This document shows positions 1-11,904 of a DNA stretch of 11,904 nucleotides, one piece after another. The DNA is from an uncultured archaeon. GTDB lineage: Archaea > Asgardarchaeota > Thorarchaeia > Thorarchaeales > Thorarchaeaceae. How positions within the stretch are numbered: position 1 is the first letter of the stretch; each line of letters starts with the position of its first letter. The DNA lies in the NCBI GenBank assembly GCA_964610875.1, contig CAZSWP010000069.1:1-11904 (forward strand). The letters are read 5' to 3'. Under the pieces are notes generated by a model, which searched no databases, was not told the origin of the DNA, and saw only the letters and a list, made by a program, of their open reading frames with translations. A program made the position numbers and the translations under genes.

Positions 1-175
1 CTTGAGACACGTCAACATTACCTGAATCGCTATGTTGACACGACCTGACCATCGTTTCAAGCAAGCAGTATATCCTGTTGGTCTTACTGTGGTCTGTCAT
101 AGGGGTCAGATCATACCCCTTTCTCCAAGACCAATCAACCATTTCAGAGGAGTCACCGTCTTGATGACTACCCAT
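1..175 (-). CDS. Partial hypothetical protein (N-terminus; runs off the left edge), divergent from the wHTH gene
   Basis: ATG at 175-173 on the minus strand. The frame reads MGSHQDGDSSEMVDWSWRKGYDLTPMTDHSKTNRIYCLLETMVRSCQHSDSGNVDVSQ with no stop to the edge. It is 52 nt from the divergent ATG at 228. Confidence 0.45.
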   Translation of the reverse strand, partial: MGSHQDGDSSEMVDWSWRKGYDLTPMTDHSKTNRIYCLLETMVRSCQHSDSGNVDVSQ

Positions 176-227
176 GTGCCCACACTACTGTTACAATCAA
201 CTTCGATTAACTATAAGTAACGAGTTT

Positions 228-512
228 ATGTCCACTGAGATTGAGGGACTGTTGGAGACACTTGAACGGACAAGTGCTCTGAGGATACTCTGTCGCCTGA
301 GAACAGGACCAATCTTCATCACTGCGCTGAAGAAGTCAGCGACCAATCCTGATGGACTGGGTTCATTCAAGACATTACGGAAGGCCTTTGATGGCCTGCT
401 GGAACTCGGACTGGTCAAAGAGAAGAAGACGGGACGACCATACTCATTGGAATACTCATTGACTGACAAGGGAAGAAAAGTACTGTCGTGTCTGGTTCAG
501 AATCTATCATGA
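228..512 (+). CDS. Winged helix-turn-helix transcriptional regulator (HxlR/PadR/MarR-like), 94 aa
   Basis: Likely start MSTEIEG at 228. The pattern LRILCRL-RTGPIFITALKK...SFKTLRKAFDGLLELGLVKEK...YSLTDKGRKV is a classic wHTH with a Y-x-LT-x-KG wing terminus. Confidence 0.85.
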   Translation: MSTEIEGLLETLERTSALRILCRLRTGPIFITALKKSATNPDGLGSFKTLRKAFDGLLELGLVKEKKTGRPYSLEYSLTDKGRKVLSCLVQNLS

Positions 513-632
513 TTATATTCTATCAAAGGACTGATGCATTTGCTAAAACAAGGATGATGCTGATTCCTTCTTAGGATGGGAGTCTGACAGTGTAATGTAA
601 TGGTGGAATGAAATTTCTGATAAGAAAATCTT

Positions 633-893
633 ATGGTAATTCGTGAGATAATACCAATCATGCCAACGAGAGCTGTTGTTGAACAAAAATACAGAAGAAG
701 ACTCCAGAAGAAAGGCATAGTGGATGAGGAGATAGAACGAAGAGTCAGTGAATATATGCATGAATATGATCTGAAAGAGCAACATCGAAAGGCGTTTCTA
801 GCTGGAAAGAAATCATATGAAAGAGCAGAAGCCAATGCTCAATTTGAGAATGAATGGTCTAAGATACGAAAACAGGTTCTTGAAAAGGAATGA
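633..893 (+). CDS. Small charged helical hypothetical protein
   Basis: 86 aa ORF (alternative ATG at 660), E/K/R-rich with purine-rich coding bias; no recognisable motif. Confidence 0.6.
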   Translation: MVIREIIPIMPTRAVVEQKYRRRLQKKGIVDEEIERRVSEYMHEYDLKEQHRKAFLAGKKSYERAEANAQFENEWSKIRKQVLEKE

Positions 894-994
894 CAACTAT
901 CTTCTATGAAATGTGGACGCAAAGATACATTGGGGACCATGTGAATACCATATCCAGCTTAATATGCGCATATCACTAACTGGAGGAGCGACGA

Positions 995-1870
995 GTGTAT
1001 CTTATCCAAGAAATCAAAGAAATGACCGATAATTTGGTCCAGCATTTTAGGCTTAGTGGATTTGAAAGTCCTAAACCAACCCATAAACATTCAACATACT
1101 TTTCGAATTTAAAACAAGCAATGCAAATGACTCAGGACTTGATTAACAAAATAGAAGAGTCCCTTCTCTCCCTAGAACCCATGATCACTTCATCCGAGTA
1201 TGATGAGCTTGAATCCGTGACCTTGGGAAGTGTTAATAGCTCAGCTCCATTTGTTTCTGCTGATCCCTTCTCAGCGAGAGAATGGAAATTTGACCAAGAA
1301 GATGACCCCTCTCCTGGTCTAATTCAAGTCCGTTATTTCTTGGAGAAAACTGTACCTCTTGAGCCTGCAAGAAAGGAGTTTGCTGAATACCTGTACTCTG
1401 CGCAACAAGCATTAAGAGTTTCATCACTTGGTATAGAACGCTTACTATCAAGAATGCAGTTTCTTGTGATGTTTCCTGATAGACTGAGTACAGCACGTTC
1501 TAAGATTGAACCACTTCTGGATTCTTTAGGTTCGAGAAACTCGAAAGATGATTTTGTACTAGCTATTGAGGACCTCGCTGGGGGCGAATTCCTTCAGTGT
1601 GTAACACATCTTAGAGGGTGCTTGGAGAAAGTAACATTTGATGTTATTGACAAGCTTGAGTTATCAAGGTCTGGTGGTAGATCAATCCAGATTCTGAAGG
1701 TTAATGGCTTTCTCAATGAATATGAATCTAGACTTCTCAAGAAATACAAAGAATTTATTGATAATCGTGTCCACGATGGAAAAGTGACACAGGTCCAAGC
1801 TCAATTTGCTCTAGATATGATGTTCTCAGTTTTGGGATTTATCTTTCTACGATTGGCTGAATTTTCTTGA
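995..1870 (+). CDS. Hypothetical protein with a C-terminal HEPN-like domain (Abi_C/DUF4145-type)
   Basis: GTG start with GGAGGAG at 982-988. The C-terminus has AIEDLAGGEFLQCVTHLRGCLEKV (A...R..LE helix), FIDNRVHDG (N..H in the HEPN catalytic position, no canonical Rx4H) and the closing helix QAQFALDMMFSVLGFI. Confidence 0.6.
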   Translation: MYLIQEIKEMTDNLVQHFRLSGFESPKPTHKHSTYFSNLKQAMQMTQDLINKIEESLLSLEPMITSSEYDELESVTLGSVNSSAPFVSADPFSAREWKFDQEDDPSPGLIQVRYFLEKTVPLEPARKEFAEYLYSAQQALRVSSLGIERLLSRMQFLVMFPDRLSTARSKIEPLLDSLGSRNSKDDFVLAIEDLAGGEFLQCVTHLRGCLEKVTFDVIDKLELSRSGGRSIQILKVNGFLNEYESRLLKKYKEFIDNRVHDGKVTQVQAQFALDMMFSVLGFIFLRLAEFS

Positions 1871-2052
1871 TTATTACAGGATAATCACTGGATAACACAA
1901 GAATTACACGAAGTGGTCATATGAAACTCAAAATTCTTGATTTATTAGTAATCACCAAACCTGAGTAATCATTCGTTCTCTCAGAGAGAATCTACTCACA
2001 AATATTGTAGCAAGCAATAGAATCTGAGAAATTCTATGCTTATACACGGTGA

Positions 2053-3357
2053 CTATCCCACATATTCCATCTCGCCGAAATACATATTGAACCCTCTCTC
2101 GCCAAATAGAATGAATGAAAGAACTGTTACAAACACAAATACCATGATCCATGCAATAGCTACAGAGATAAACGAAAGGGGATGCATCATATCAAAAGTC
2201 GGTTCAGGAAATACAAAAAATATAGAGAATGAGATGAATATCATTGTAAAATTGATTAGACCCAATCCCGCTGAAGCATTCATTCTACTCAGCACTATCT
2301 CTCTTCTTTTTACTGCTTTTCTAAGTAAATCATTGAAATCATCATTGGACACATCAAAGTAAGGTACTAGACCTGGACCAAGCGAATCACCATTACACGT
2401 AATTCTCAAAGACGAAAATGAGAAGAAAATGGCTATAATTGCAAAAAAAGCTAAACCAAAACTTCCCAGTATAAGACCTGTCGAGATAAGATTAGGTTCT
2501 GCAGGATTTACACTTACCGCAAGAATTGCTAGTGATATTGTAAGGAGAATACTAATCCCATTACGGAAATTGCTTCGATTCTTGTCAAGAATATCACATC
2601 TGGAAGCTAAGTAGGTTACATCTGGTTTGAATACATCTTCAGATTTGGATTCTTCTTCATCTAGAGTTTCTTCTTCAATTTTCTGCATCGGTCTGATAAC
2701 CATGATTGTGAATGACAGGAAAACGAATGAAGCTCCTAAATAATCTCCAATTGTATTGTGTGCATCTATTTCGTTTTGCACCTCAGAGTCGGAATAGAGG
2801 ACCACATATGTCCTGTTGATCGGAGTGTACAGATAGTCACTGCCGTTCCAGTGCTCTATTAGTATTTGATATGTGACATTGGTTTTTGCAGGTTGTTTCT
2901 TGATATTCACTGACAGATAATTCACATATTCTGTAGGTAAATCATCCACTGAAAACCCTTCGTAATGAGTCCACCATTCTCTGTAATTGAATGAACCTAC
3001 TTCAATATCTTTGCTATCATTATAGTGATCCCCATGGTCTCCATTGCTATATAGAAACCATACACCCACAAATGGGGTATAGTATGACCTATTTACCCAA
3101 AATTCAACATTGGAAAAGTAGTCGCTAGTGACGTTATGCACACCTCCCAACTCGGCACAGAGGACATCTCCATCCTTCAATAGATAGGGTTCAGCATTCT
3201 TTCTAACAACTCCTGTGTTGATATCTGGTTGAGTGATACGGGCAAAACCCACAAAGATTGGAACAAGAATCAGGAAAAGAAGAGAAATCTGTATAGCTCT
3301 CCTATATCTAGGCCATAGTAGTTTTTTGTATCTACTCAGGATATCGACAGCTTTCAT
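2053..3357 (-). CDS. Multi-pass membrane protein (434 aa): N-terminal TM, extracellular beta-rich domain, C-terminal TM bundle resembling PycTM/DUF5706
   Basis: AGAGGAG lies 6 nt before the ATG at 3357 (MKAVDIL). Hydrophobic segments are ISLLFLILVPIFVGF, YLGASFVFLSFTIMVI, ISILLTISLAILAVSV, LILGSFGLAFFAIIAIFFSF, GLGLINFTMIFISFSIFFVF and FISVAIAWIMVFVFVTVLSFILF. The domain after TM1 has N-x-S/T sequons (NVT, NRS, NGS, NRT). Confidence 0.8.
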   Translation of the reverse strand: MKAVDILSRYKKLLWPRYRRAIQISLLFLILVPIFVGFARITQPDINTGVVRKNAEPYLLKDGDVLCAELGGVHNVTSDYFSNVEFWVNRSYYTPFVGVWFLYSNGDHGDHYNDSKDIEVGSFNYREWWTHYEGFSVDDLPTEYVNYLSVNIKKQPAKTNVTYQILIEHWNGSDYLYTPINRTYVVLYSDSEVQNEIDAHNTIGDYLGASFVFLSFTIMVIRPMQKIEEETLDEEESKSEDVFKPDVTYLASRCDILDKNRSNFRNGISILLTISLAILAVSVNPAEPNLISTGLILGSFGLAFFAIIAIFFSFSSLRITCNGDSLGPGLVPYFDVSNDDFNDLLRKAVKRREIVLSRMNASAGLGLINFTMIFISFSIFFVFPEPTFDMMHPLSFISVAIAWIMVFVFVTVLSFILFGERGFNMYFGEMEYVG

Positions 3358-3398
3358 TTGAACTCCTCTGGAATACGTATGAATCAGGTTTGAATTGA

Positions 3399-3489
3399 GG
3401 TCAGGAGTAAGAATGGGATGCAATTCTCCTACCAAGGACTAAAGGTGTGGCCCTGTTACGCTAGGAACACCAGAACCTTACTCCCAACC
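3399..3489 (-). ncRNA. Candidate structured RNA or cis-regulatory leader upstream of the membrane-protein gene
   Basis: 14-bp closing helix 3399-3412/3476-3489, whose three mismatches are all G-U on the minus strand. Internal stems are GGUGU/ACACC plus UCCU/AGGG, and UCCU-UGGU-AGGA. Confidence 0.4.
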
Positions 3490-3495
3490 AAAAAT

Positions 3496-3507
3496 ACTTA
3501 GCTAAGT
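3496..3507. promoter_or_regulatory. Perfect 12-bp palindrome ACTTAGCTAAGT in a divergent intergenic region; possible operator
   Basis: Direct reading; lies between the divergent genes at 3357(-) and 3683(+). Confidence 0.35.
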
Positions 3508-3682
3508 GGTAGTAGAAAAGAGTTCTGGTTTGCGAAATATATTGTTCTTCCAGTGAAAAACTAGGAAATTCACTCTATGCTAATCTCGCCAAATTCTTCA
3601 GAAAATCAGAATCAAGACGAGTTCTTATGATTATTGTATGAGAAGGACAACATGATTTATGACATTGTATTCATCTGCCTAA

Positions 3683-4534
3683 TTGAAAATGGATTCTCTG
3701 GGTAGAACTAATATGGACGACAAATTGTATCAAAGCGGCAAATTTCAATCTTGGAGAAGAGATATTCTTGGGTTTTATGAGGACGCATTTAGCAAATCTC
3801 TTGATGTAGAATCTGAGAAAATACTGGATTGGACATTTCCAAATCGTTTGATTCTGTACATGAAAGACTCCATTCTGGCTGCATACTCTCCAATCCCTGA
3901 GATACAGCATCTTCTCAGTAAGTTGCCAATGGGAGAAGCTCCTTCTAATGAGGAGATTGAAAAGAAGAGACAGGTAGAATCATTTATTCTAGACAGTCTG
4001 CTTGAAAAGAGACTATCCCTTTGGTACCGTTCTGTACTATGGATAACCACAGCAGCCTATTATGGTGCTTATGAGTCAGTTGCACGAGAGTTGAGATTCA
4101 TAGTTGAGGATTGTGTTCAGGCATACATTGTTGATATGCGGATTCCTTATGATGAATATGATGGCCGTGTTGAATCGTCAATCATGAAAGATGAACTTAG
4201 AGGTGGGCGACTGATAGATGAAGCCAAACTTCCTGATGACCTTACAAAAAATCTCAAAGATATCTATTATACACTATGCGACTATGTTCATCCATCTATG
4301 AAAATAATCAAAGCAATCAAAGGAAACAGCACTGGAAATTTTGAGTATGATGAAGACATGTTTCATCAAGCATATAATTGGCACAGAACTGCTTTCGACC
4401 TTGTTTTTGTTCTTGTGTTATCTAAATTTCCTAAGGCAATCAGAAAATTAGAGAAAAACTTCGACATACGTCAGGATTTGACACACTATAACTATGAAGA
4501 AACTCTGAAATTCATATCAAACGATAGATTCTGA
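3683..4534 (+). CDS. HEPN-like helical protein (DUF5677-type)
   Basis: GAYESVARELRFIVE (G-x-Y...LR..vE) and DIYYTLCDYVHP (Y..L[SC]..VH) are the two hallmark motifs of DUF5677-like HEPN relatives. The start is uncertain (3683 TTG, 3689 or 3713 ATG). Confidence 0.65.
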   Translation: MKMDSLGRTNMDDKLYQSGKFQSWRRDILGFYEDAFSKSLDVESEKILDWTFPNRLILYMKDSILAAYSPIPEIQHLLSKLPMGEAPSNEEIEKKRQVESFILDSLLEKRLSLWYRSVLWITTAAYYGAYESVARELRFIVEDCVQAYIVDMRIPYDEYDGRVESSIMKDELRGGRLIDEAKLPDDLTKNLKDIYYTLCDYVHPSMKIIKAIKGNSTGNFEYDEDMFHQAYNWHRTAFDLVFVLVLSKFPKAIRKLEKNFDIRQDLTHYNYEETLKFISNDRF

Positions 4535-4604
4535 TTTGAATTCACAAATACTGTAAAATCTTGCAACTCGTTCGGAACGCATTCCTGAATCAAACACAGG
4601 CAAC

Positions 4605-5204
4605 TTACACATTGGCATGACAATTCGGACACTGAGTCAAACCTTGTTCAAACTTCTTACCGCAGTAAGGACAAACAATCAGAACTCTGGTATAGGCAGG
4701 GATATCCTCAGTTTCCTCTAACTTTTTCTTATCAGCCGACTTCCTTTGAGAAACAACACTCACAATAACCACGAACAGAGCAATGATTCCAAGTAGCCCA
4801 AGAAATGGTGATATGGATGTTGTACTCTGTTCTTCTTCAACATATACAGTAAAGCTCTCAGTCAATTCCGATGCTCCTGAGAAGAGTGACCCTGCTTCAA
4901 CATGGATCGTATACGACCCTGTTTCGCTCAGTGAGATTGTATACTCATGTGAATAAATGATGTATGCATCTCCATCAAAAATATGCGTCCCCCAAGTGAG
5001 TTCTTCTTCTCCTGTAGCAGAGAGAGAGAAATAGTCATAGTCCTGAGCATTTGTCAACCTGACCGTGAAACTGAACTCTTCATGCTCAGTCACTCTGCTA
5101 GGTTCGTCTAGAATTTCCAATACAGGTGTTTGTGCATGTACATTTGATGCAAGGACTGACAATGTCAGTACTAGTAGTAACGAGAATAATATACTCCTTC
5201 TCAA
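4605..5204 (-). CDS. Single-pass membrane protein: signal peptide, Ig-like extracellular domain, TM, cytoplasmic zinc ribbon
   Basis: Signal peptide MRRSILFSLLLVLTLSVLASNVHA|Q; beta-sandwich pattern FSFTVRLTNA...TGSYTIHVEA; TM FLGLLGIIALFVVIVSVV; C-terminal CPYCGKKFEQGLTQCPNCHANV. Confidence 0.85.
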   Translation of the reverse strand: MRRSILFSLLLVLTLSVLASNVHAQTPVLEILDEPSRVTEHEEFSFTVRLTNAQDYDYFSLSATGEEELTWGTHIFDGDAYIIYSHEYTISLSETGSYTIHVEAGSLFSGASELTESFTVYVEEEQSTTSISPFLGLLGIIALFVVIVSVVSQRKSADKKKLEETEDIPAYTRVLIVCPYCGKKFEQGLTQCPNCHANV

Positions 5205-5453
5205 TCAATCATCCCTTCTGCGAGAATATTTCAAATCCCCTCTAGACATAGATACAAGTGAAGTGCTGAACTAAATATCTTTCCGAAACTCATAATGAAG
5301 TTGTTAACTCAATTGTTAGGAGTTTCACCTAGAGAGTGTATTCAGAGTTATCTTCTTATTGCACATGATAGTAGGATGAGATGATGTAAGTATTCATTGA
5401 GGGATATTGAGAAGGACCTCTACGCACTATGAAAGGTCTTCTGGAATAGTGCA

Positions 5454-5696
5454 ATGATTGGCTCATTGAAAGAGTCAGATAAAAGTGGAAGAGAGAAAGT
5501 ACGATACTTTCTCAATGCCTATGGAAAGCAGGTGCTTGAATTACTCATTAAGAGATACAAGAGAGATAATATGGACCAAATTGATCTTTTTGTGGAGAAG
5601 GATGATTCAAAAATAGTGCTTGTTATTTGCCCGTTCTGTGGTGTGAAGACTCCTCATGGTCTGATGAGATGTAAGAAATGTGAATCTGACCTGTAG
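5454..5696 (+). CDS. Small zinc-ribbon protein, possibly 5'-truncated
   Basis: C-terminal VLVICPFCGVKTPHGLMRCKKCESDL. The frame continues upstream past an in-frame TGA at 5430-5432 (KYSLRDIEKDLYAL*KVFWNSAM). Confidence 0.7.
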   Translation: MIGSLKESDKSGREKVRYFLNAYGKQVLELLIKRYKRDNMDQIDLFVEKDDSKIVLVICPFCGVKTPHGLMRCKKCESDL

Positions 5697-5789
5697 TTAG
5701 AGTATGATGACATAGTTTTGGGAATAAGTAAAATTAGTTCCTGATTGGATTGCGTCGTGGCAAGAGACTGAGGGTGACTTTGAATGAGT

Positions 5790-6632
5790 TCACCGTAAGA
5801 ATTTCTTTACAAGTGGCATCATAGTTCGTTCAAGTTCAACGACTTGTAATTCTTCTTCACCCAAAAGTGCTTTCATGATCTCTAGTTTAGCTATTTCAGC
5901 CTCAGCGGTTTCAAGGTTCATTTCTACATATTTTCGTGTTGTTTCATTCTTCTTCAAGTGGTAGACCCATCGTATCAAAGATACATCATCAGTACTAACA
6001 TCAGGGTGACTCAATGACTTTACCCATTTCAAAAGATATGCCTCTCGAAAGAATGTAGGGTCAGTGAGAAGACTGTAAAAGAATCTGGTGAATACCAACC
6101 TAAGGTGGTCATCTGGATCATTCGGGTCAGTACCACTGGGATTCCAGAGATGCCCTGATTCTCTAGACATAGAATCAATACTATGGGTGATTGCCCAAGC
6201 AGCATACATCAGCCGTTCCGCAGCTATCCACTCTATTCCTTCTCCTTCTCTGAAGAAATACCACAATCCAAATACCTCGGGAAGAAGATTCTTCCAGATT
6301 TGGGATATTTTGGCAATCTTTTCCAAAGCATCACCCAAGAGATTGAGTGCTCTAACGTTATCTATTGTCGGGTGAGGAACAGGTCTGATGAACAAGTCAT
6401 TGAGGACCGTAGCAAGTCCCTCCACTGTTAGAGAAATACTTGTGTGAGGATGTGGGTTTTCAAGTGTTGGCCTACTCTTACATCTAATCAGACCCTGATC
6501 TCTAAGCTTTCCAATTCTGGTCGAAACGGTACTACTAGCAATACCTAGTTTTTTGGATATTTTATTACCGATAGTTGGACCACAGAGACCGAGGTTTCTC
6601 AAAATTTCACTATCACGTTTAGATAAAATCAT
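5790..6632 (-). CDS. Winged-HTH (MarR/ArsR-like) regulator with a large C-terminal helical domain
   Basis: LSKRDSEILRNL-GLCGPTIGNKISKKLGIASSTVSTRIGKLRDQGLI...SLTVEG is a wHTH; about 200 aa of unrecognised C-terminal sequence follows. Confidence 0.85.
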   Translation of the reverse strand: MILSKRDSEILRNLGLCGPTIGNKISKKLGIASSTVSTRIGKLRDQGLIRCKSRPTLENPHPHTSISLTVEGLATVLNDLFIRPVPHPTIDNVRALNLLGDALEKIAKISQIWKNLLPEVFGLWYFFREGEGIEWIAAERLMYAAWAITHSIDSMSRESGHLWNPSGTDPNDPDDHLRLVFTRFFYSLLTDPTFFREAYLLKWVKSLSHPDVSTDDVSLIRWVYHLKKNETTRKYVEMNLETAEAEIAKLEIMKALLGEEELQVVELERTMMPLVKKFLR

Positions 6633-6723
6633 TGTCTTATATTCTCACTCTTGATTGATATACTATGAGGCTAACTTGTGTTTTATAATATCAAATTAAC
6701 GAAGTTTTCGGAGTTTTTAAAAA

Positions 6724-6757
6724 CACAGTAAACTGATAGAGGTATTCTTATACTGTG
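6724..6757. promoter_or_regulatory. Inverted repeat CACAGTA-N20-TACTGTG overlapping a TATA-like TTATA (6748-6752); putative operator
   Basis: Lies in the divergent promoter between the wHTH gene and 6771. It has the same core and spacing as 9908-9941. Confidence 0.5.
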
Positions 6758-6770
6758 ACATCCAGTACTA

Positions 6771-7613
6771 ATGTGTGGCATGACAGTGACAGACTCTATG
6801 ATAAAGTACGAACCACCTCTTGAAGAGATGGACGAGGAGACAGAAAGACTCACCATTGAAGTGGAAGAACACGGTGGAGTCCTGAGCAGTACTGTGACCA
6901 GACGGCGCATGGACTTCACGGTAGAGGATGGACAGATCATCTTCAAACACGGAGAGATACTGCTCGGAGACCCTGAGGGACTGCACTTCTCATTCCCCGT
7001 GATGCCGTGGGAGAAGACCCATGCACTGACCAGAGCACCAGGGCGAGCTGGCAGAAAGATATTCGACAGCGGCAGGTTCGGTAAGGTCCGCTGGTACACC
7101 CCCCATCCTATAGACTATCGGACAACTGACGATAGGCTGTATATGGCAATGGGTACGGACAGAGAAGGAAAGCAGCAACTCATCACCGTGGCAGAGCGTG
7201 AGGATGTGGAACTCTGGACACTGGTAGAGGCCATCACTCTGGAAGACGACTACACCGAGTTTGCTGAGCGAGTCCGACAGCACATCCGCAGACTGGTGGA
7301 CGAGGGAGTATTGAGCACAAAACTACTTGATGCTCTGGAGATTCTGGATGACTGCATTGCGGTACACCCCAGTGTGACTCGTGAGGTACTGTATCCCCCT
7401 GAGGGAGAGCAACCGCGACCTGACACACCTACAGTGGTTGATGATGCACATGCCCTTGGTATGCAACTACGGCATGAGGCAGCTATGCTCCTGCATATGG
7501 TCAAGCTTGGGAAAGAAGCAGAGGAACGACTCCGAGAGATGGAGATTCCGCAGAAGCAACTTGAACGAGCGTGGCGTATGATCCATGACAGTAAATCAGT
7601 ACCAGAGCTGTAG
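6771..7613 (+). CDS. Hypothetical protein (beta-rich N half, helical C half) in a GC-rich gene
   Basis: 280 aa ORF (alternative ATG at 6780) with protein-like composition; 37/60 G+C in 6961-7020; no recognisable motif. Confidence 0.8.
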   Translation: MCGMTVTDSMIKYEPPLEEMDEETERLTIEVEEHGGVLSSTVTRRRMDFTVEDGQIIFKHGEILLGDPEGLHFSFPVMPWEKTHALTRAPGRAGRKIFDSGRFGKVRWYTPHPIDYRTTDDRLYMAMGTDREGKQQLITVAEREDVELWTLVEAITLEDDYTEFAERVRQHIRRLVDEGVLSTKLLDALEILDDCIAVHPSVTREVLYPPEGEQPRPDTPTVVDDAHALGMQLRHEAAMLLHMVKLGKEAEERLREMEIPQKQLERAWRMIHDSKSVPEL

Positions 7614-7630
7614 ATAGAGTTGATTACACA

Positions 7631-7959
7631 ATGAGTCTGAAGAAAAAGAGGGACACCTTCAAGCGAAAAAGGAGAAGGAAGAAGTCTGCTCCCAGTTATG
7701 ATACAGAACGAGAAACACATACGACTCCAGACTTAGAAGTAGATATACACGTGTCAAGACAATTCACTGGCATCCTGAAGAGGAATTTAGCAAACCTCTC
7801 TGCCATGATGTTTTTTCAAAAGCCCCATCTAACATCGACTGGGTTTCCTGAAGGTTTTGTCTGAAGTGTCTTGTGAAAAGAGGTCTTTTAGATGAATCCG
7901 AGCTCGAATTTAAGAATCTTCTAAGAAGACGAGAATTGGCTAAATTCAGACCCGTTTAG
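7631..7959 (+). pseudogene. Disrupted basic zinc-finger-like gene (one frameshift plus an in-frame TGA)
   Basis: ATG 7631 gives MSLKKKRDTFKRKRRRKK. The -1 frame 7702-7959 reads YRTRNTYDSRLRSRYTRVKTIHWHPEEEFSKPLCHDVFSKAPSNIDWVS*RFCLKCLVKRGLLDESELEFKNLLRRRELAKFRPV*, with TGA at 7849-7851. Confidence 0.5.
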
Positions 7960-7991
7960 TCAAGGAAGAAAGTCGTATTTGAAAAAGGTGA

Positions 7992-8015
7992 TGGAGTTGG
8001 CCTCTTCCAACTCCA
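7992..8015 (-). terminator. Stem-loop between convergent genes; likely terminator
   Basis: TGGAGTTGG-CCTCTT-CCAACTCCA is a 9-bp perfect stem, followed on the minus strand by a T5 tract (plus-strand AAAAA at 7982-7986). Confidence 0.55.
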
Positions 8016-8020
8016 CATTA

Positions 8021-8074
8021 CTATAGTTTTCCACCACAATTGGGGCATGTCGTGATGGCTTGTTCAACTTTCAC
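8021..8074 (-). pseudogene. Orphan 3' remnant of a zinc-ribbon gene (VKVEQAITTCPNCGGKL*)
   Basis: Matches the second half of the ribbon in 4605..5204 (KFEQGLTQCPNCHANV). The first CxxC is missing and there is an in-frame stop a few codons upstream. Confidence 0.55.
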
Positions 8075-8150
8075 ACGAACCGGTATCTTGGTTTACAGGT
8101 TTAGAAGTTTATTCTTCAAAATAGATTTAACATATTTCTAATCATCGAAC

Positions 8151-8807
8151 TTAGTATTCATATGCGTATATGAATGGCATTGAAAGACAAATTGGATCTA
8201 TTGCAAAGTCAATGGTAGAGTAATATGATGTGTAATCTTGGTAAATCACATCGCCACCAGATACATAATCAATTTCATGATGTGTGGATGGTTCTCTTTT
8301 TGTGCAATACCATGAGCTATCTATTATTTCTGCATCATCACCATCTGGATCCCATTTGACAACACAATACTCGTAAACACTCTTATCGATGTAGCCTAGT
8401 ACTATCGTGTACCAAATATAACCACTTGGAATATCTGAAAACGTGTATCGTACTTTCATCCTCTGCAAGAATACTCCATAATTCTCTTCATAGTAAATTT
8501 CATAGTCATATATACCATCCGAGCCGCTTTCATAGAACGAACCGTATTTAACTGTTGTATCAGTCGGATCATTCCAATCATCATATATCTATCCTGAGAG
8601 CTCAAATTTTTGAGTATCAAATGTTTTACTTAGAACTACTATCTCTTCGCCATATTCATCGGTATAGAATAATTCCATACTTGTTGGAAGAATGAATATT
8701 GGATTACTCACTATTGTAGAGAACAATTCGCCTAGTGGAGCAATCGATGGAGTCATTACAATAGACAACAAGATAATTGACAATACTACGGTGTTTTTCT
8801 TTTGCAT
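8151..8807 (-). pseudogene. Secreted acidic, Tyr-rich protein interrupted by a single in-frame TAG
   Basis: ORFs 8589..8807 and 8151..8468 share a frame (offset 339 nt). The 40 codons between them are open (FELSG*IYDDWNDPTDTTVKYGSFYESGSDGIYDYEIYYEENYGVFLQRMK). The N-terminus is a signal peptide, MQKKNTVVLSIILLSIV. Confidence 0.7.
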
Positions 8808-8960
8808 TTATATCCCTCAATATAGGTATTGATGGTTTCTGATAACCTAATTTTCACTTCTTTCAAGTAATTCTAGATTACCAATCTCCCATCAATGTAC
8901 CACATCAGTAGAGAATACCTCTACCATTATACTATCGAATGTTATTTTATAAAAATGCTT

Positions 8961-9434
8961 TCATGAGTAAATTTCTTCAAGAGTTTGTTCATAATTATTC
9001 CATGGAGTTTGAGGACTACAAGGCTGTTTAATAAGGAGAAAAATAGCTGCGGCAAATATATAGAGAGGCATAGGCCCAACATATGCATGAAAATGTAGTG
9101 GAACAGTAAATATAAACAGAATGGGAAGAATTTCTCCTATAAATGAACTAACAATAACCATACGAAAAGAAGTTTTGTTTCTATAAAATCTCAGTAGCTG
9201 AATGGGAAGAATAAATCTTGGTCCACAAAAAAGAAAGTATCCGAATGCAACTAATGGTTCATTGATGAAATAGCTGAACCCTGATGAATCAAACATAGCA
9301 CTCCAGAAAAGAAAGATTGAATAAATATCAATCTCGCCATCAGCAGTGATATATAGTGTTAACCGAAGTGGAGAGAAGATAACTAAGATGCCAACGACTA
9401 ATGGTGCAATAATTCCTATGACTCTAGTGTCCAT
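8961..9434 (-). CDS. Integral membrane protein (about 4-5 TM)
   Basis: Hydrophobic throughout. The pattern RFILPIQLLRFYRNKTSFRMVIVSSFIGEILP...P.TPW resembles, from memory, a Thorarchaeia-expanded membrane family (not verified). Confidence 0.8.
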   Translation of the reverse strand: MDTRVIGIIAPLVVGILVIFSPLRLTLYITADGEIDIYSIFLFWSAMFDSSGFSYFINEPLVAFGYFLFCGPRFILPIQLLRFYRNKTSFRMVIVSSFIGEILPILFIFTVPLHFHAYVGPMPLYIFAAAIFLLIKQPCSPQTPWNNYEQTLEEIYS

Positions 9435-9727
9435 CGAAATACCTTCAAATTTTTACTTGTGCTTCAAGATATAATCATTCCTACTATTATTTGGAAGAAA
9501 AACACTACCAATTACTCGCCAAAACACATAGTCATATCTAGATGGTAATCCACTAGTCGGGTAAAGACTCAATAGATGGTTTCCTAAGCTTTGTTTATTG
9601 ATTCTATTTTTCTTGTCCCTGATGGAAGCAACTCTTAAAATCTGTTATGTATTATTCAAATATCATTTCAGATTTTTCCAATCCTTCAATAATCACTCAA
9701 TATATCTTTGCAAATAATGATTAAGGA

Positions 9728-9904
9728 TTAAATCAGAAGCAGTGGCAACTCTACGAGATTTCTTATTTCAACAATTCCACTCAAGTACACTGACAATTTA
9801 GACACTTCCTTCCTCAGGAGTATAGCAAGAACATCAACATCTAACACTAGCAGACGGTAACCATTCACGATATAATACTCCACTATTCTAATGGCAGAAT
9901 CCAT
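9728..9904 (-). CDS. Possible small ORF (58 aa), divergent from the paralogue operon
   Basis: MDSAIRIVEYYIVNGYRLLVLDVDVLAILLRKEVSKLSVYLSGIVEIRNLVELPLLLI*. Absent from the ORF track (apparently under its size cut-off); starts directly beside the 9907-9942 palindrome. Confidence 0.25.
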   Translation of the reverse strand: MDSAIRIVEYYIVNGYRLLVLDVDVLAILLRKEVSKLSVYLSGIVEIRNLVELPLLLI

Positions 9905-9906
9905 AT

Positions 9907-9942
9907 CTACAGTATTTTGTATAATAATACAGAATACTGTAG
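9907..9942. promoter_or_regulatory. 36-bp near-perfect inverted repeat upstream of a TATA-like TTAAATAA (9947-9954)
   Basis: CTACAGTATTTTGTAT-AATA-ATACAGAATACTGTAG, with 15/16 arm complementarity. Confidence 0.7.
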
Positions 9943-9975
9943 GACATTAAATAATAAACCAAGACATATAGAGAT

Positions 9976-10413
9976 ATGACAGGCCACAGACAACCAAACG
10001 GGAACGCTTCTTCTATACTTGCATCGCTTTTTTCAGAGCATCCAGAGAAGCTACGGGAGTATAATCGGATACTCGGCGAGATAGCCGATATCATGTTCAA
10101 TACCGAGGGTATAACATACGTCATGAGGGGAGGAGTGAAGAGAGTCAGACTTCCAGACCTCGTGACCTTTCAGATGGTCTTTGCCTCAGGCAGAGCAGGT
10201 TTCAACGAGGACTCCCTCTTGGTAAGGTGTAAAGCGGCTCTTGCTAGGCTTGAATCTGTAGAAGAATCCGTACTAAAGAAGGATGTTAACCCTGATAGTG
10301 TTGGGCTCACAGGACTGAGCTTAGACGGGTTAGAGTTTCATGTACTACAGGTCACCTATGTCCCTTTCAGACAGACAAAAGAGGCAGAATCAAGGCGCGT
10401 GACTGTTGAATGA
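9976..10413 (+). CDS. Hypothetical protein, paralogue A of a tandem pair
   Basis: 145 aa. A TATA-like box about 22-29 nt upstream suggests a leaderless transcript. Shares S..P....E..RIL..........TEGI.Y with the next gene. Confidence 0.8.
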   Translation: MTGHRQPNGNASSILASLFSEHPEKLREYNRILGEIADIMFNTEGITYVMRGGVKRVRLPDLVTFQMVFASGRAGFNEDSLLVRCKAALARLESVEESVLKKDVNPDSVGLTGLSLDGLEFHVLQVTYVPFRQTKEAESRRVTVE

Positions 10414-10901
10414 ACTGCATGAGAATAGAGGGGCGAGAGGCAGAGGAACTCTACCTCTCTTCTACTCCGCACATCTACAAAGAGCACCTGCGGATACTCA
10501 GCGACATGTGTAAGTTGATCTCAGAAACCGAGGGAATCTACTACACCGCAGCTCTCAGAAGCGAGGATGCTCATTTGTACAGTACGGGACGTGTTTCCTT
10601 CAACTACCGTGTATACTGGACACATCAAGAAGGGGGTTACTCTTGTGCACATGAGATAGGCATACGGTTACGCGAGTTCTTCATTGAAAATGATGTGAAC
10701 TACATAACCACTGGCGGAAGATATCCCGACTCATGGACAAACGCCCGTCTTGAGGAAGCAGAGGGAGTGAGTATAAGCAGTGTGGGAATAGGCATCAGTT
10801 ATTGTAGTTTCCATGAGTCTGATGAACACGCACAGCTGTCCTTTAGTAGACTGTGGGAACGGGTTAACAAGACCAAGTACCCAGTTATGGGGGTTAGATA
10901 G
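10410..10901 (+). CDS. Hypothetical protein, paralogue B of a tandem pair
   Basis: 163 aa; ATGA overlap with the upstream gene (10410-10413); homologous N-terminal block. Confidence 0.8.
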   Translation: MNCMRIEGREAEELYLSSTPHIYKEHLRILSDMCKLISETEGIYYTAALRSEDAHLYSTGRVSFNYRVYWTHQEGGYSCAHEIGIRLREFFIENDVNYITTGGRYPDSWTNARLEEAEGVSISSVGIGISYCSFHESDEHAQLSFSRLWERVNKTKYPVMGVR

Positions 10902-10939
10902 ATATACCTCACATAAGAGTTAATAGAATTTGAGAAGAA

Positions 10940-11425
10940 GTGAGTCATATGAGGGAACTGCCACTTATCGTATGGGGTTTCCAAAATCATTTTGGGTTTT
11001 GGATATTTAGGACAAATAAGGACGATATTGACCTAATGGCACCATTTCTCTCTAGAAACAAATCCTATAGAGAATATGACATCTTTGAAGCATTCTCTAT
11101 TCGCAATCAACATCGAGAAGAGAGAAACGACTCTCCCATGACATTTGAAGAATTCTTAGAAGAAGTCGAAAAAGAGGAGTCACATGAGGAAAGACTCCGT
11201 ATGATTGAATCTGAAAGAAAGGGTAAGGAAGAGAGAAGAAAGAAATGGGAAGAGTGGAAACAGGCTAGAGAGAAAATAGCAGAAGCACGAGCAAAGCAGG
11301 ATGAGATTACAAAGAGGAAATGGGAAGAGTGGCAAAAAAGGCGAGAAAGAGACATGCAAAAACTAGAAGAAGTATATGAAAAGAGCAGACAAGAGCTTTC
11401 AGAAAAATCGAGTAAAGTGAAATAA
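10940..11425 (+). CDS. Hypothetical protein with an ER/K-rich single-alpha-helix or coiled-coil tail
   Basis: GTG 10940 or ATG 10949. The C-terminal half is E/K/R-rich with duplicated KWEEW; GAAATGGGAAGAGTGG occurs at 11242-11257 and 11317-11332. Confidence 0.75.
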   Translation: MSHMRELPLIVWGFQNHFGFWIFRTNKDDIDLMAPFLSRNKSYREYDIFEAFSIRNQHREERNDSPMTFEEFLEEVEKEESHEERLRMIESERKGKEERRKKWEEWKQAREKIAEARAKQDEITKRKWEEWQKRRERDMQKLEEVYEKSRQELSEKSSKVK

Positions 11426-11465
11426 GAAACAACAGACATCGAACAAAGCGACTAAGCGTATCCTC

Positions 11466-11800
11466 CTCTACCTACATAGTTATTGTTTGAAGTCTGAGAG
11501 CAAGATGTTACCGGTACGAGAGGAACGTAATGTCGCGGCCTATGGTGTACCGATTGTCCGAGAGGGCAATGTCGGGTAGCTAAGCCGTAAGGGATAAGCG
11601 CTGAATGCATCTAAGCGTGAAGCCTGACTTGAAAATAGACTTCAATTTTACCAGACGTCGCTTTCGATAGCAATATGGGACTGGCGACAGTAACGTATAG
11701 TCTGGAAACGAGGACTCTGCTAGAAGAGCAGGTAAATAGGGCAGGGGTGTAAGCACCAAGCTTCGGCGAGGTGTTCAGCTCACTGCTACTAATGTCCGAG
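11466..11800 (+). rRNA. rrl: Archaeal 23S rRNA, 3' fragment only (from about E. coli position 2611: H73 3' strand plus domain VI)
   Basis: Sarcin-ricin loop GTACGAGAGGAAC at 11514-11526 on stem GATGTTAC/GTAATGTC; conserved GGGATAAGCGCTGAATGCATCTAAGCGTGAAGCC; H94 TTGAAGTCT (11487-11495)/AGACTTCAA (11637-11645); archaeal 3' end GGGGTGTAAGCACC...GGTGTTCAGC...GTCCGAG. The upstream domain V motif GTGAGACAGGTCGG is absent. Confidence 0.93.
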
Positions 11801-11826
11801 GCGAGCAAGTCGAAAGTGTAGCTCGC
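11801..11826 (+). other. Hairpin directly after the 23S 3' end
   Basis: GCGAGC-N14-GCTCGC, 6-bp GC-rich stem. Confidence 0.4.
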
Positions 11827-11904
11827 ACAGTACCTAGAGTTGCGTACAGCGAAGGGTTATGGAATGGAACGTATGTGAAACGAGATCTGCATCTTCATCC
11901 TCTG

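Follow-up and report, generated by a model that had tools for sequence, protein, structure and literature searches.

How does the 3' end of a 23S rRNA gene come to stand, structurally intact, directly behind an island of accessory genes in an archaeal genome? The question is raised by C69, a contig of 11,904 nt analysed here over its entire length and referred to as the window, from G000, a short-read metagenome-assembled genome (MAG) of Thorarchaeota with 124 contigs and 3.75 Mb (95% complete, 5.8% contaminated, 40.7% GC). The original prediction offered three options for this locus: (a) the right end of an element integrated inside the 23S gene and possibly carrying its own replacement domain VI, (b) a giant insertion or intron within the 23S gene, and (c) a naturally split gene. 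We consider it somewhat better than an even call that an island was inserted here and that the piece, lying at its far edge, is a displaced duplicate of the 23S tail and neither one half of a split gene nor the exon behind a giant intron.

The domain VI piece and its junction

The features of the window are the following.

1–114, forward strand: repeat R at the left contig end, 96.5% identical to C46 595–707, which lies ~650 nt downstream of the rRNA piece
115–11463, both strands: accessory island, mostly without a match in the family, with winged helix-turn-helix (wHTH) regulators and membrane proteins
8426–8467, forward strand: possible decayed short trailer-end copy, ending on the same ...TTCATCCTCTGCA motif (its score is reached by 3 of 200 shuffles)
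10807–10912, forward strand: branch point to C54, with the first 55 nt identical and the 106 nt 91.5% identical, after which C54 diverges
11464–11483, forward strand: junction segment resembling the H73 3' strand, with a 2-nt insertion and several changes relative to the family
11484–11811, forward strand: structurally intact 23S domain VI (H94–H101), including the sarcin-ricin loop and a 62-nt expansion of H98, together with the 3' terminus
11812–11904, forward strand: 3' trailer, i.e., the 3' strand of the pre-23S processing stem, conserved to 11842–11844 and running a few nucleotides into C46
11893–11904, forward strand: terminal motif CTTCATCCTCTG, followed by CAG in C46, at the base of the processing stem; end point of both the SPAdes contig and the Logan contig X2

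The Rfam model of the archaeal LSU rRNA (RF02540) matches 11484–11797 on the forward strand with 219.5 bits (E 3.5e-66). The match covers model positions 2721–2973 of 2987, unlike a functional archaeal LSU gene, which would cover the whole model with domains I–VI. The first bases homologous to relatives lie at ~11465–11467 (TCTACCTA versus TCTATCTA in the family) in an alignment with 12 relatives, and the preceding ORF stops at 11425, as expected from the predicted abrupt start of rRNA similarity near 11466, about 40 nt after a protein stop. By E. coli numbering, we place this start at ~2611, where the 3' strand of H73 begins immediately behind H93; the predicted placement at the domain V/VI boundary agrees with the same alignment. 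Likewise, no other LSU sequence was found in the window by cmscan, in keeping with the claim that domains I–V are absent from the preceding 11 kb. At the other end, the homology to relatives extends beyond the mature 3' end (~11811) up to 11842–11844, and the trailer reaches the contig end.

The part of the rRNA that is present shows a conserved secondary structure with covariation, and its helices still pair as predicted, with two non-canonical pairs alone in the 314 nt of the RF02540 match. Two compensatory pairs are private to the window, namely U-A at 11488/11644 and A-U at 11499/11629, each in place of the G-C of all others. The sarcin-ricin loop carries the variant GGUACG common to the whole family, and its G is found in all eight same-family relatives aligned. 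From H94 on, the pairwise identity to relatives is 71–80%, overlapping the 72–85% among the relatives themselves, and about 6 private changes in the window piece compare with 3–10 in most relatives. The piece thus shows no excess of private changes and is presumably either young or still constrained, which counts against a displaced copy. The stretch corresponding to 11464–11483, in contrast, is invariant in 28 of 28 family genes, from which the window departs by the 2-nt insertion and several changes. The minimum free energy fold of 11380–11904 was uninformative (z −1.9). Relative to the Rfam consensus, the window has a 62-nt insertion at H98 (11647–11708), which aligns with family relatives and is consistent with an Asgard-type ES39-like expansion.

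The junction between the island and the rRNA is real DNA and not an artefact of one assembler. Two public runs (two samples of one microbial-mat study, possibly the source of the MAG itself) contain >90% of the sampled words of 9000–11904. Two Logan contigs (k=31) cross the junction with 0 mismatches: X1 covers 11409–11904 plus 104 nt beyond, and X2 covers 11107–11904. Their depth is 6.6–6.9 versus 3.6–5.5 for the island. The junction and a species-specific word of domain VI were also sought in JGI metagenomes by exact-word scans, which gave no match, and no RNA run is among the public runs listed as containing the window sequence. An assembly chimera, joining an unrelated island to the rRNA tail of the same or another organism, might be suspected in a short-read MAG with 5.8% contamination, where the contig lies amid repeats and branch points and where rRNA regions are notorious for misjoins. 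Nevertheless, each junction-spanning word must be present in the reads of both libraries, which makes a pure assembler chimera unlikely. The k=31 contigs of the two separate samples cross the junction at island depth, no shared repeat occurs there, and both the GC content and the Thorarchaeota-type domain VI match the bin. We therefore regard a chimera, which the original prediction named as a refuting case, as highly improbable.

The island itself is patchily distributed. Its ORF 10410–10901 occurs in 0 of 85 family genomes, and an exact-protein look-up returned no record for it, whereas ORF 2053–3435 is found in 8 of 85. The putative remnant at 8426–8467, if real, would make the island a composite of at least two cassettes, as its sequence hints. 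No viral hallmark gene was found in the island, for which PHROGs gave weak regulator-type matches alone. As to repeated regions, window 3389–3538, the promoter and 5' region of ORF 2053–3435, recurs with 75–100% identity at C46 1262–1410 and C13 32268–32394 and in C102 and C84, and looks like the conserved leader of a paralogous gene family. ORF 6771–7613 with its flanks (window 6720–7651) has an 80%-identical paralogue on C21 (61337–62268).

The processing stem, the missing gene and the assembly graph

In this family, the 3' boundary of the 23S-tail copies described below coincides with the base of the processing stem. The motif CCTCCATCCTC(A/T)GCA is the 3' strand of this base, located at 11893–11904 in the window, and its complement TGCAGAGGATGGAGG was present in the leaders of all eight relatives examined. 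No such leader motif was found in the MAG. The 200 nt upstream of the piece and the window trailer form a predicted duplex of −46.5 kcal/mol, no better than shuffled sequences (median −40.6, minimum −56.1), while the real leader-trailer duplexes of seven relatives reach −81 to −97 kcal/mol. As it has no pairing leader, the piece cannot form the processing stem used by archaeal pre-23S RNA.

This result bears on the possibility that the organism has no other 23S 3' end than this piece, in a gene that a giant insertion or intron interrupts at ~2610/2611 or that is naturally split, with domain VI made as a separate RNA and assembled in trans. The piece is the sole domain VI in the MAG, it retains an intact structure, with compensatory changes of its own and an ordinary load of substitutions, the assembly graph has no branch at the left boundary, and the family does have insertions in nearby domain V (~2451, ~2581 and ~2600, by an offset estimate). 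On the other side, the insert would exceed 11.4 kb with genes on both strands versus 30–791 nt for the domain V insertions of the family, which speaks against option (b). Option (c) is unsupported in view of the lack of any leader pairing with the trailer and of the family, in which no other genome has a stand-alone domain VI: among 29 family tails, the window piece is the sole domain VI without domain V in front. The H73 strand would need to dock in trans, yet its sequence differs from one that is invariant in the family, and at this site all 28 other family genes are uninterrupted. Each relative with a full-length LSU match carries one contiguous LSU gene, so that interruption of an only copy should be harmful. 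The remainder of the 23S gene is also absent from the MAG, so the missing second copy weighs little. Taken together, an interrupted or split gene appears quite unlikely.

The domain V insertions of relatives cluster by site. Five loci (L006, L007, L010, L011 and L012) have insertions of 144–791 nt at one shared site, L013 has 429 nt at a second and L009 216 nt at a third; by the offset estimate, these three sites lie near E. coli ~2451, ~2581 and ~2600. They are probably small rRNA introns.

A displaced duplicate presupposes an intact gene elsewhere, which is assumed here and was not seen in the MAG. The LSU search of the whole assembly proposed with the original prediction recovered neither the remainder of the 23S gene nor a second domain VI: BLAST of the LSU genes of 12 relatives found no LSU sequence besides the piece, i.e., neither domains I–V nor a second domain VI anywhere in the MAG, and a 23S leader was not found there either. 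These absences rest on BLAST, since an SSU search of the same genome had missed a 16S fragment on C25. The rRNA genes of the MAG are broken internally at contig ends; model positions ~1–485 are all that is present of the 16S gene, at the end of C25 (57530–58036; L042 3531–4037). rRNA loci are commonly missing or broken in short-read bins. With no 23S remainder or leader, we read the true 23S locus as missing from the bin, as is usual for such bins.

Synteny with relatives led to the same contig-end situation. The three genes upstream of the 23S gene in seven relatives are syntenic with C35 8372–1638, and the start of C35 contains two further protein genes and no rRNA before the contig ends. 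Downstream synteny to the end of C15 was discarded as uninformative, being an IS110-like transposase (by sequence) repeated in C61. This IS110-like gene occupies C15 76250–77757 and the end of C61, two contig ends that are each continued by the end of C2, and G007 has a similar gene 0.5 kb downstream of its 23S gene.

The contig ends of the window are themselves informative. Contig overlaps in G000 are 55 nt, as is typical of SPAdes. The last 55 nt of C69 are the first 55 nt of C46, and the first 55 nt of C69 are C46 595–649; because of these identical ends, the assembly graph contains a cycle running from C69 through C46 1–649 back to C69. Repeat R (~114–220 nt) occurs at the start of C69, in C46 482–707 and at the start of C34. 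We considered R as a tRNA attachment site and rejected it, since no tRNA or 5S gene was found near the piece or in C46, C34 and C54. The common stop of the SPAdes contig and X2 at 11904 is read as a graph branch with two continuations.

The cycle fits a linear chromosome in which the island is flanked by two direct copies, ~96% identical to each other, of a ~1.1-kb segment made up of domain VI, the trailer, ~540 nt and R. A free circle of 12.4 kb would give an identical graph. In that case, C69 together with C46 56–594 would be a free or excisable ~12.4-kb circle (a plasmid, a virus or an excised island) whose domain VI and trailer, with ~650 nt of the flank beyond them, would act as a homology arm when it integrates next to the 23S gene. 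The graph cycle itself, in which the end of C69 equals the start of C46 and the start of C69 equals C46 595–649, would accommodate such a circle, as would the two continuations read at 11904 in both assemblies; C34rc, which encodes core metabolism, also enters repeat R and could be the empty chromosomal site. Yet two diverged direct repeats in a linear chromosome yield the same cycle, the copies of R differ by 3–4%, and the overlaps may be mere shared words. In addition, no replication, partition, integrase or capsid gene was found in the 11.4 kb, and no excess of coverage suggests an episome. A circle is therefore unlikely, even if somewhat less so than an interrupted gene.

The displaced-duplicate reading has to accommodate the assemblies as well. 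Neither the SPAdes nor the Logan assembly breaks at the left boundary of the piece, although a recent identical duplicate would force a break; this reading thus needs either diverged copies or a clipped other branch.

Copies of the 23S tail in the family

A search of the 85 other genomes of the family with 11464–11850 as the query returned dozens of partial copies of the 23S 3' end beside one full-length tail per genome. The partial copies end alike at the window equivalent of 11842–11844, and their 5' starts vary (~11676–11683, ~11745–11790 and ~11812). Each of them comprises the 3' strand of the pre-23S processing stem in full. Leaving out matches cut by contig ends, we mapped 34 internal copies in 14 loci of 11 genomes from 6 genera. 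They are arranged as same-strand arrays with a spacing of 0.7–8.5 kb. In six genomes (G001, G042, G086, G003, G089 and G025), the array lies directly downstream of the intact 23S gene in the same orientation. Within a genome, the copies are alike through the entire trailer up to CCTCCATCCTC(A/T)GCA and a T-run. A pattern scan of a genome collection also gave single bacterial matches, which look like chance.

Twelve of 14 copies are closest to the 23S tail of their own genome (75–99% identity versus 48–79% for other genomes), which identifies them as local duplicates of different ages. Some left boundaries recur between genera, e.g., ~11676 in three genera. The layout of the window, with a partial 3' copy (11464–11904) directly after the island at its distal edge, is thus the one that recurs in relatives. 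Two differences count against the displaced-copy reading: both the length of the window copy, with ~350 nt of 23S sequence versus at most 168 nt in the internal copies of relatives (twice as long), and its boundary inside the gene are unique in the family. The insertions of relatives are mostly found behind the trailer and not inside the gene.

The cassettes between the copies encode LRR, TPR, GNAT, methyltransferase, nitroreductase, CAAX-protease and DUF4268 proteins. Two cassettes, named by sequence motifs, recur: MNT/HEPN-like pairs in four genomes, and a three-gene ABC-type module also in four (L074, L076, L081 and L085). In G025 and G001, the same end of the ABC module abuts a 31–33-nt tail copy, in opposite orientation relative to the copy.

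The 16S trailer of G000 has a like architecture. C44 1–3600 contains five copies of a unit formed by the 16S 3' end and trailer, verified against the 16S tails of relatives, with GTTGAGCG cores at 49, 856, 1879, 2532 and 3532 and cassettes of 0.65–1 kb between them; the copy at 3341–3553 extends into the 16S terminus.

Could the copies, including that of the window, be 5'-truncated retro-copies of the pre-23S transcript, primed at its 3' end? The constant 3' boundary at the trailer end beside a T-run and the scattered 5' starts, with the window equivalent of 11464 as a further one, would be expected of such an origin. Recombination at the gene fits better with same-strand arrays right behind the gene and cassettes in between, and left boundaries shared between genera, such as that near 11676, are also at odds with truncation during reverse transcription. 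The copies moreover include the trailer, which is removed in rRNA maturation, and no reverse transcriptase was seen in the arrays. We consider retro-copying distinctly improbable.

We also looked for an enzyme that could move the cassettes. Among the Pfam-scanned ORFs of C69, C46 and C34, an assembly in which the left end of the island is absent, there was no recombinase or integrase, including in the island, where the original prediction suggested looking for an integrase. A direct repeat of the junction, also suggested there, was not found in the window either. No recombinase was found in the arrays of relatives, which, together with its absence from the island, also counts against the displaced-copy reading. 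In genome-wide searches, a method that has given false negatives, PF00589 had no match in four array-rich genomes; its single match in G000 lies on C52, which has no detected link to C69, C46 or C44, and this C52 protein gave no phmmer match to 339 array ORFs.

Based on these observations, the displaced-duplicate reading would run as follows. The single 23S gene would have received an island of at least 11 kb, either at its 3' end or behind it, and the end of this target would have been duplicated in the process. The incoming DNA may have brought a homologous or replacement end with it, or the event may have been an "insertion with long target duplication". The piece would then be a non-functional copy comprising domain VI and the 3' terminus together with the whole 3' strand of the pre-23S processing stem, and presumably the longest member of the family's class of tail copies. 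We infer an intact 23S gene proximal to the island, unassembled or unbinned, as well as the direction of the event and the enzyme behind it. Option (a) of the original prediction, the end of an element integrated in the 23S gene, thereby gains from the copies that bound cassettes in many relatives; its proximal end, a second domain VI and an integrase were not found.

A wider proposal, which we put forward tentatively and hold to be possible but rather doubtful, is that Thorarchaeota maintain a gene-capture platform on the processing-stem trailers of the 16S and 23S genes. Cassettes would be added serially with a variable extent of tail duplication by a recombination activity encoded elsewhere, and the window would be the largest footprint. 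If true, this platform would be an integron-like system without an adjacent integrase, and its largest footprint would reach back to the peptidyl-transferase region.

For the window, the analysis does away with the idea of a 23S gene that is split or holds a giant intron, which was tempting but had no support. It illustrates that a fragment of rRNA in a MAG may well be genuine DNA without being the gene. In this Asgard lineage, the arrays suggest that accessory genes have repeatedly landed at the ends of rRNA genes. The divergence of copies from the resident tail could date the footprints, providing a handle on the acquisition of defence, transport and surface genes. At the same time, binning by rRNA, estimates of copy number and the calling of introns can all be led astray by tail copies.

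Comparison with known systems

A literature search of incomplete coverage found no description of archaeal arrays bounded by duplicates of the rRNA tail and trailer. The closest parallel in layout is given by islands at the 3' ends of tRNA and tmRNA genes, including tandem accretion arrays. In both cases, the target is a stable RNA gene with a partial 3' copy at the distal edge, the copies share a 3' boundary at the end of a functional unit and differ in their 5' extent, and arrays accumulate directly behind the intact gene. Unlike in those islands, the target here is an rRNA gene with its processing-stem trailer, the copies span 30–440 nt, the inserts and their immediate flanks yielded no integrase, and many of the cassettes measure just ~1 kb and lack mobility genes.

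Archaeal bulge-helix-bulge (BHB) rRNA introns share with the window the location of the break in the intron-rich peptidyl-transferase region, near which relatives have small insertions. BHB introns are compact inserts transcribed with the host RNA, whereas the insert here exceeds 11.4 kb, carries ORFs on both strands, and has a 5' junction that is absent from the assembly.

Integrons, reported for archaea by Ghaly et al. (2022; as cited in PMC11529989), resemble the arrays in their small, mostly promoterless-looking cassettes (toxin-antitoxin, GNAT, methyltransferases), repeats resembling recombination sites and a fixed anchor. Unlike in integrons, no IntI was found beside the arrays, the repeats are copies of the rRNA tail, and some cassettes are multi-gene and lie in either orientation.

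The original prediction knew of no described prokaryotic case like option (a), a statement that needs qualifying in view of two published ones. Partial duplication of rRNA genes has been reported in bacteria as "insertion with long target duplication" (Lim, Furuta and Kobayashi, 2012, PMC3457768). In that work, an insert lies between long direct duplicates of part of an rRNA gene, as may hold here, and the proposed mechanism involves no dedicated recombinase. The published events are bacterial, each a single occurrence with a short insert (21 nt between 270-nt duplicates), unlike the serial and lineage-wide events with kilobases of accessory genes in this archaeal lineage. Of two long direct target copies, one is seen here. 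The left end of C69 repeats a sequence ~650 nt behind the piece (R, 96.5% identical), and the graph closes a cycle; the second domain VI was not recovered.

The second published case comes from Heimdallarchaeum, in which HeimM2 and HeimV2 have integrated precisely between tRNA-Arg and the only 16S gene (Wu et al., 2022, PMC8813620). These elements carry homing-endonuclease-like or viral genes, and arrays of rRNA-tail duplicates are not described in the available text of that report. What they share with the locus studied here, according to the same text, is an Asgard host and a hot spot right behind an rRNA gene, and their cargo includes LRR proteins, as do some of the Thorarchaeota cassettes.
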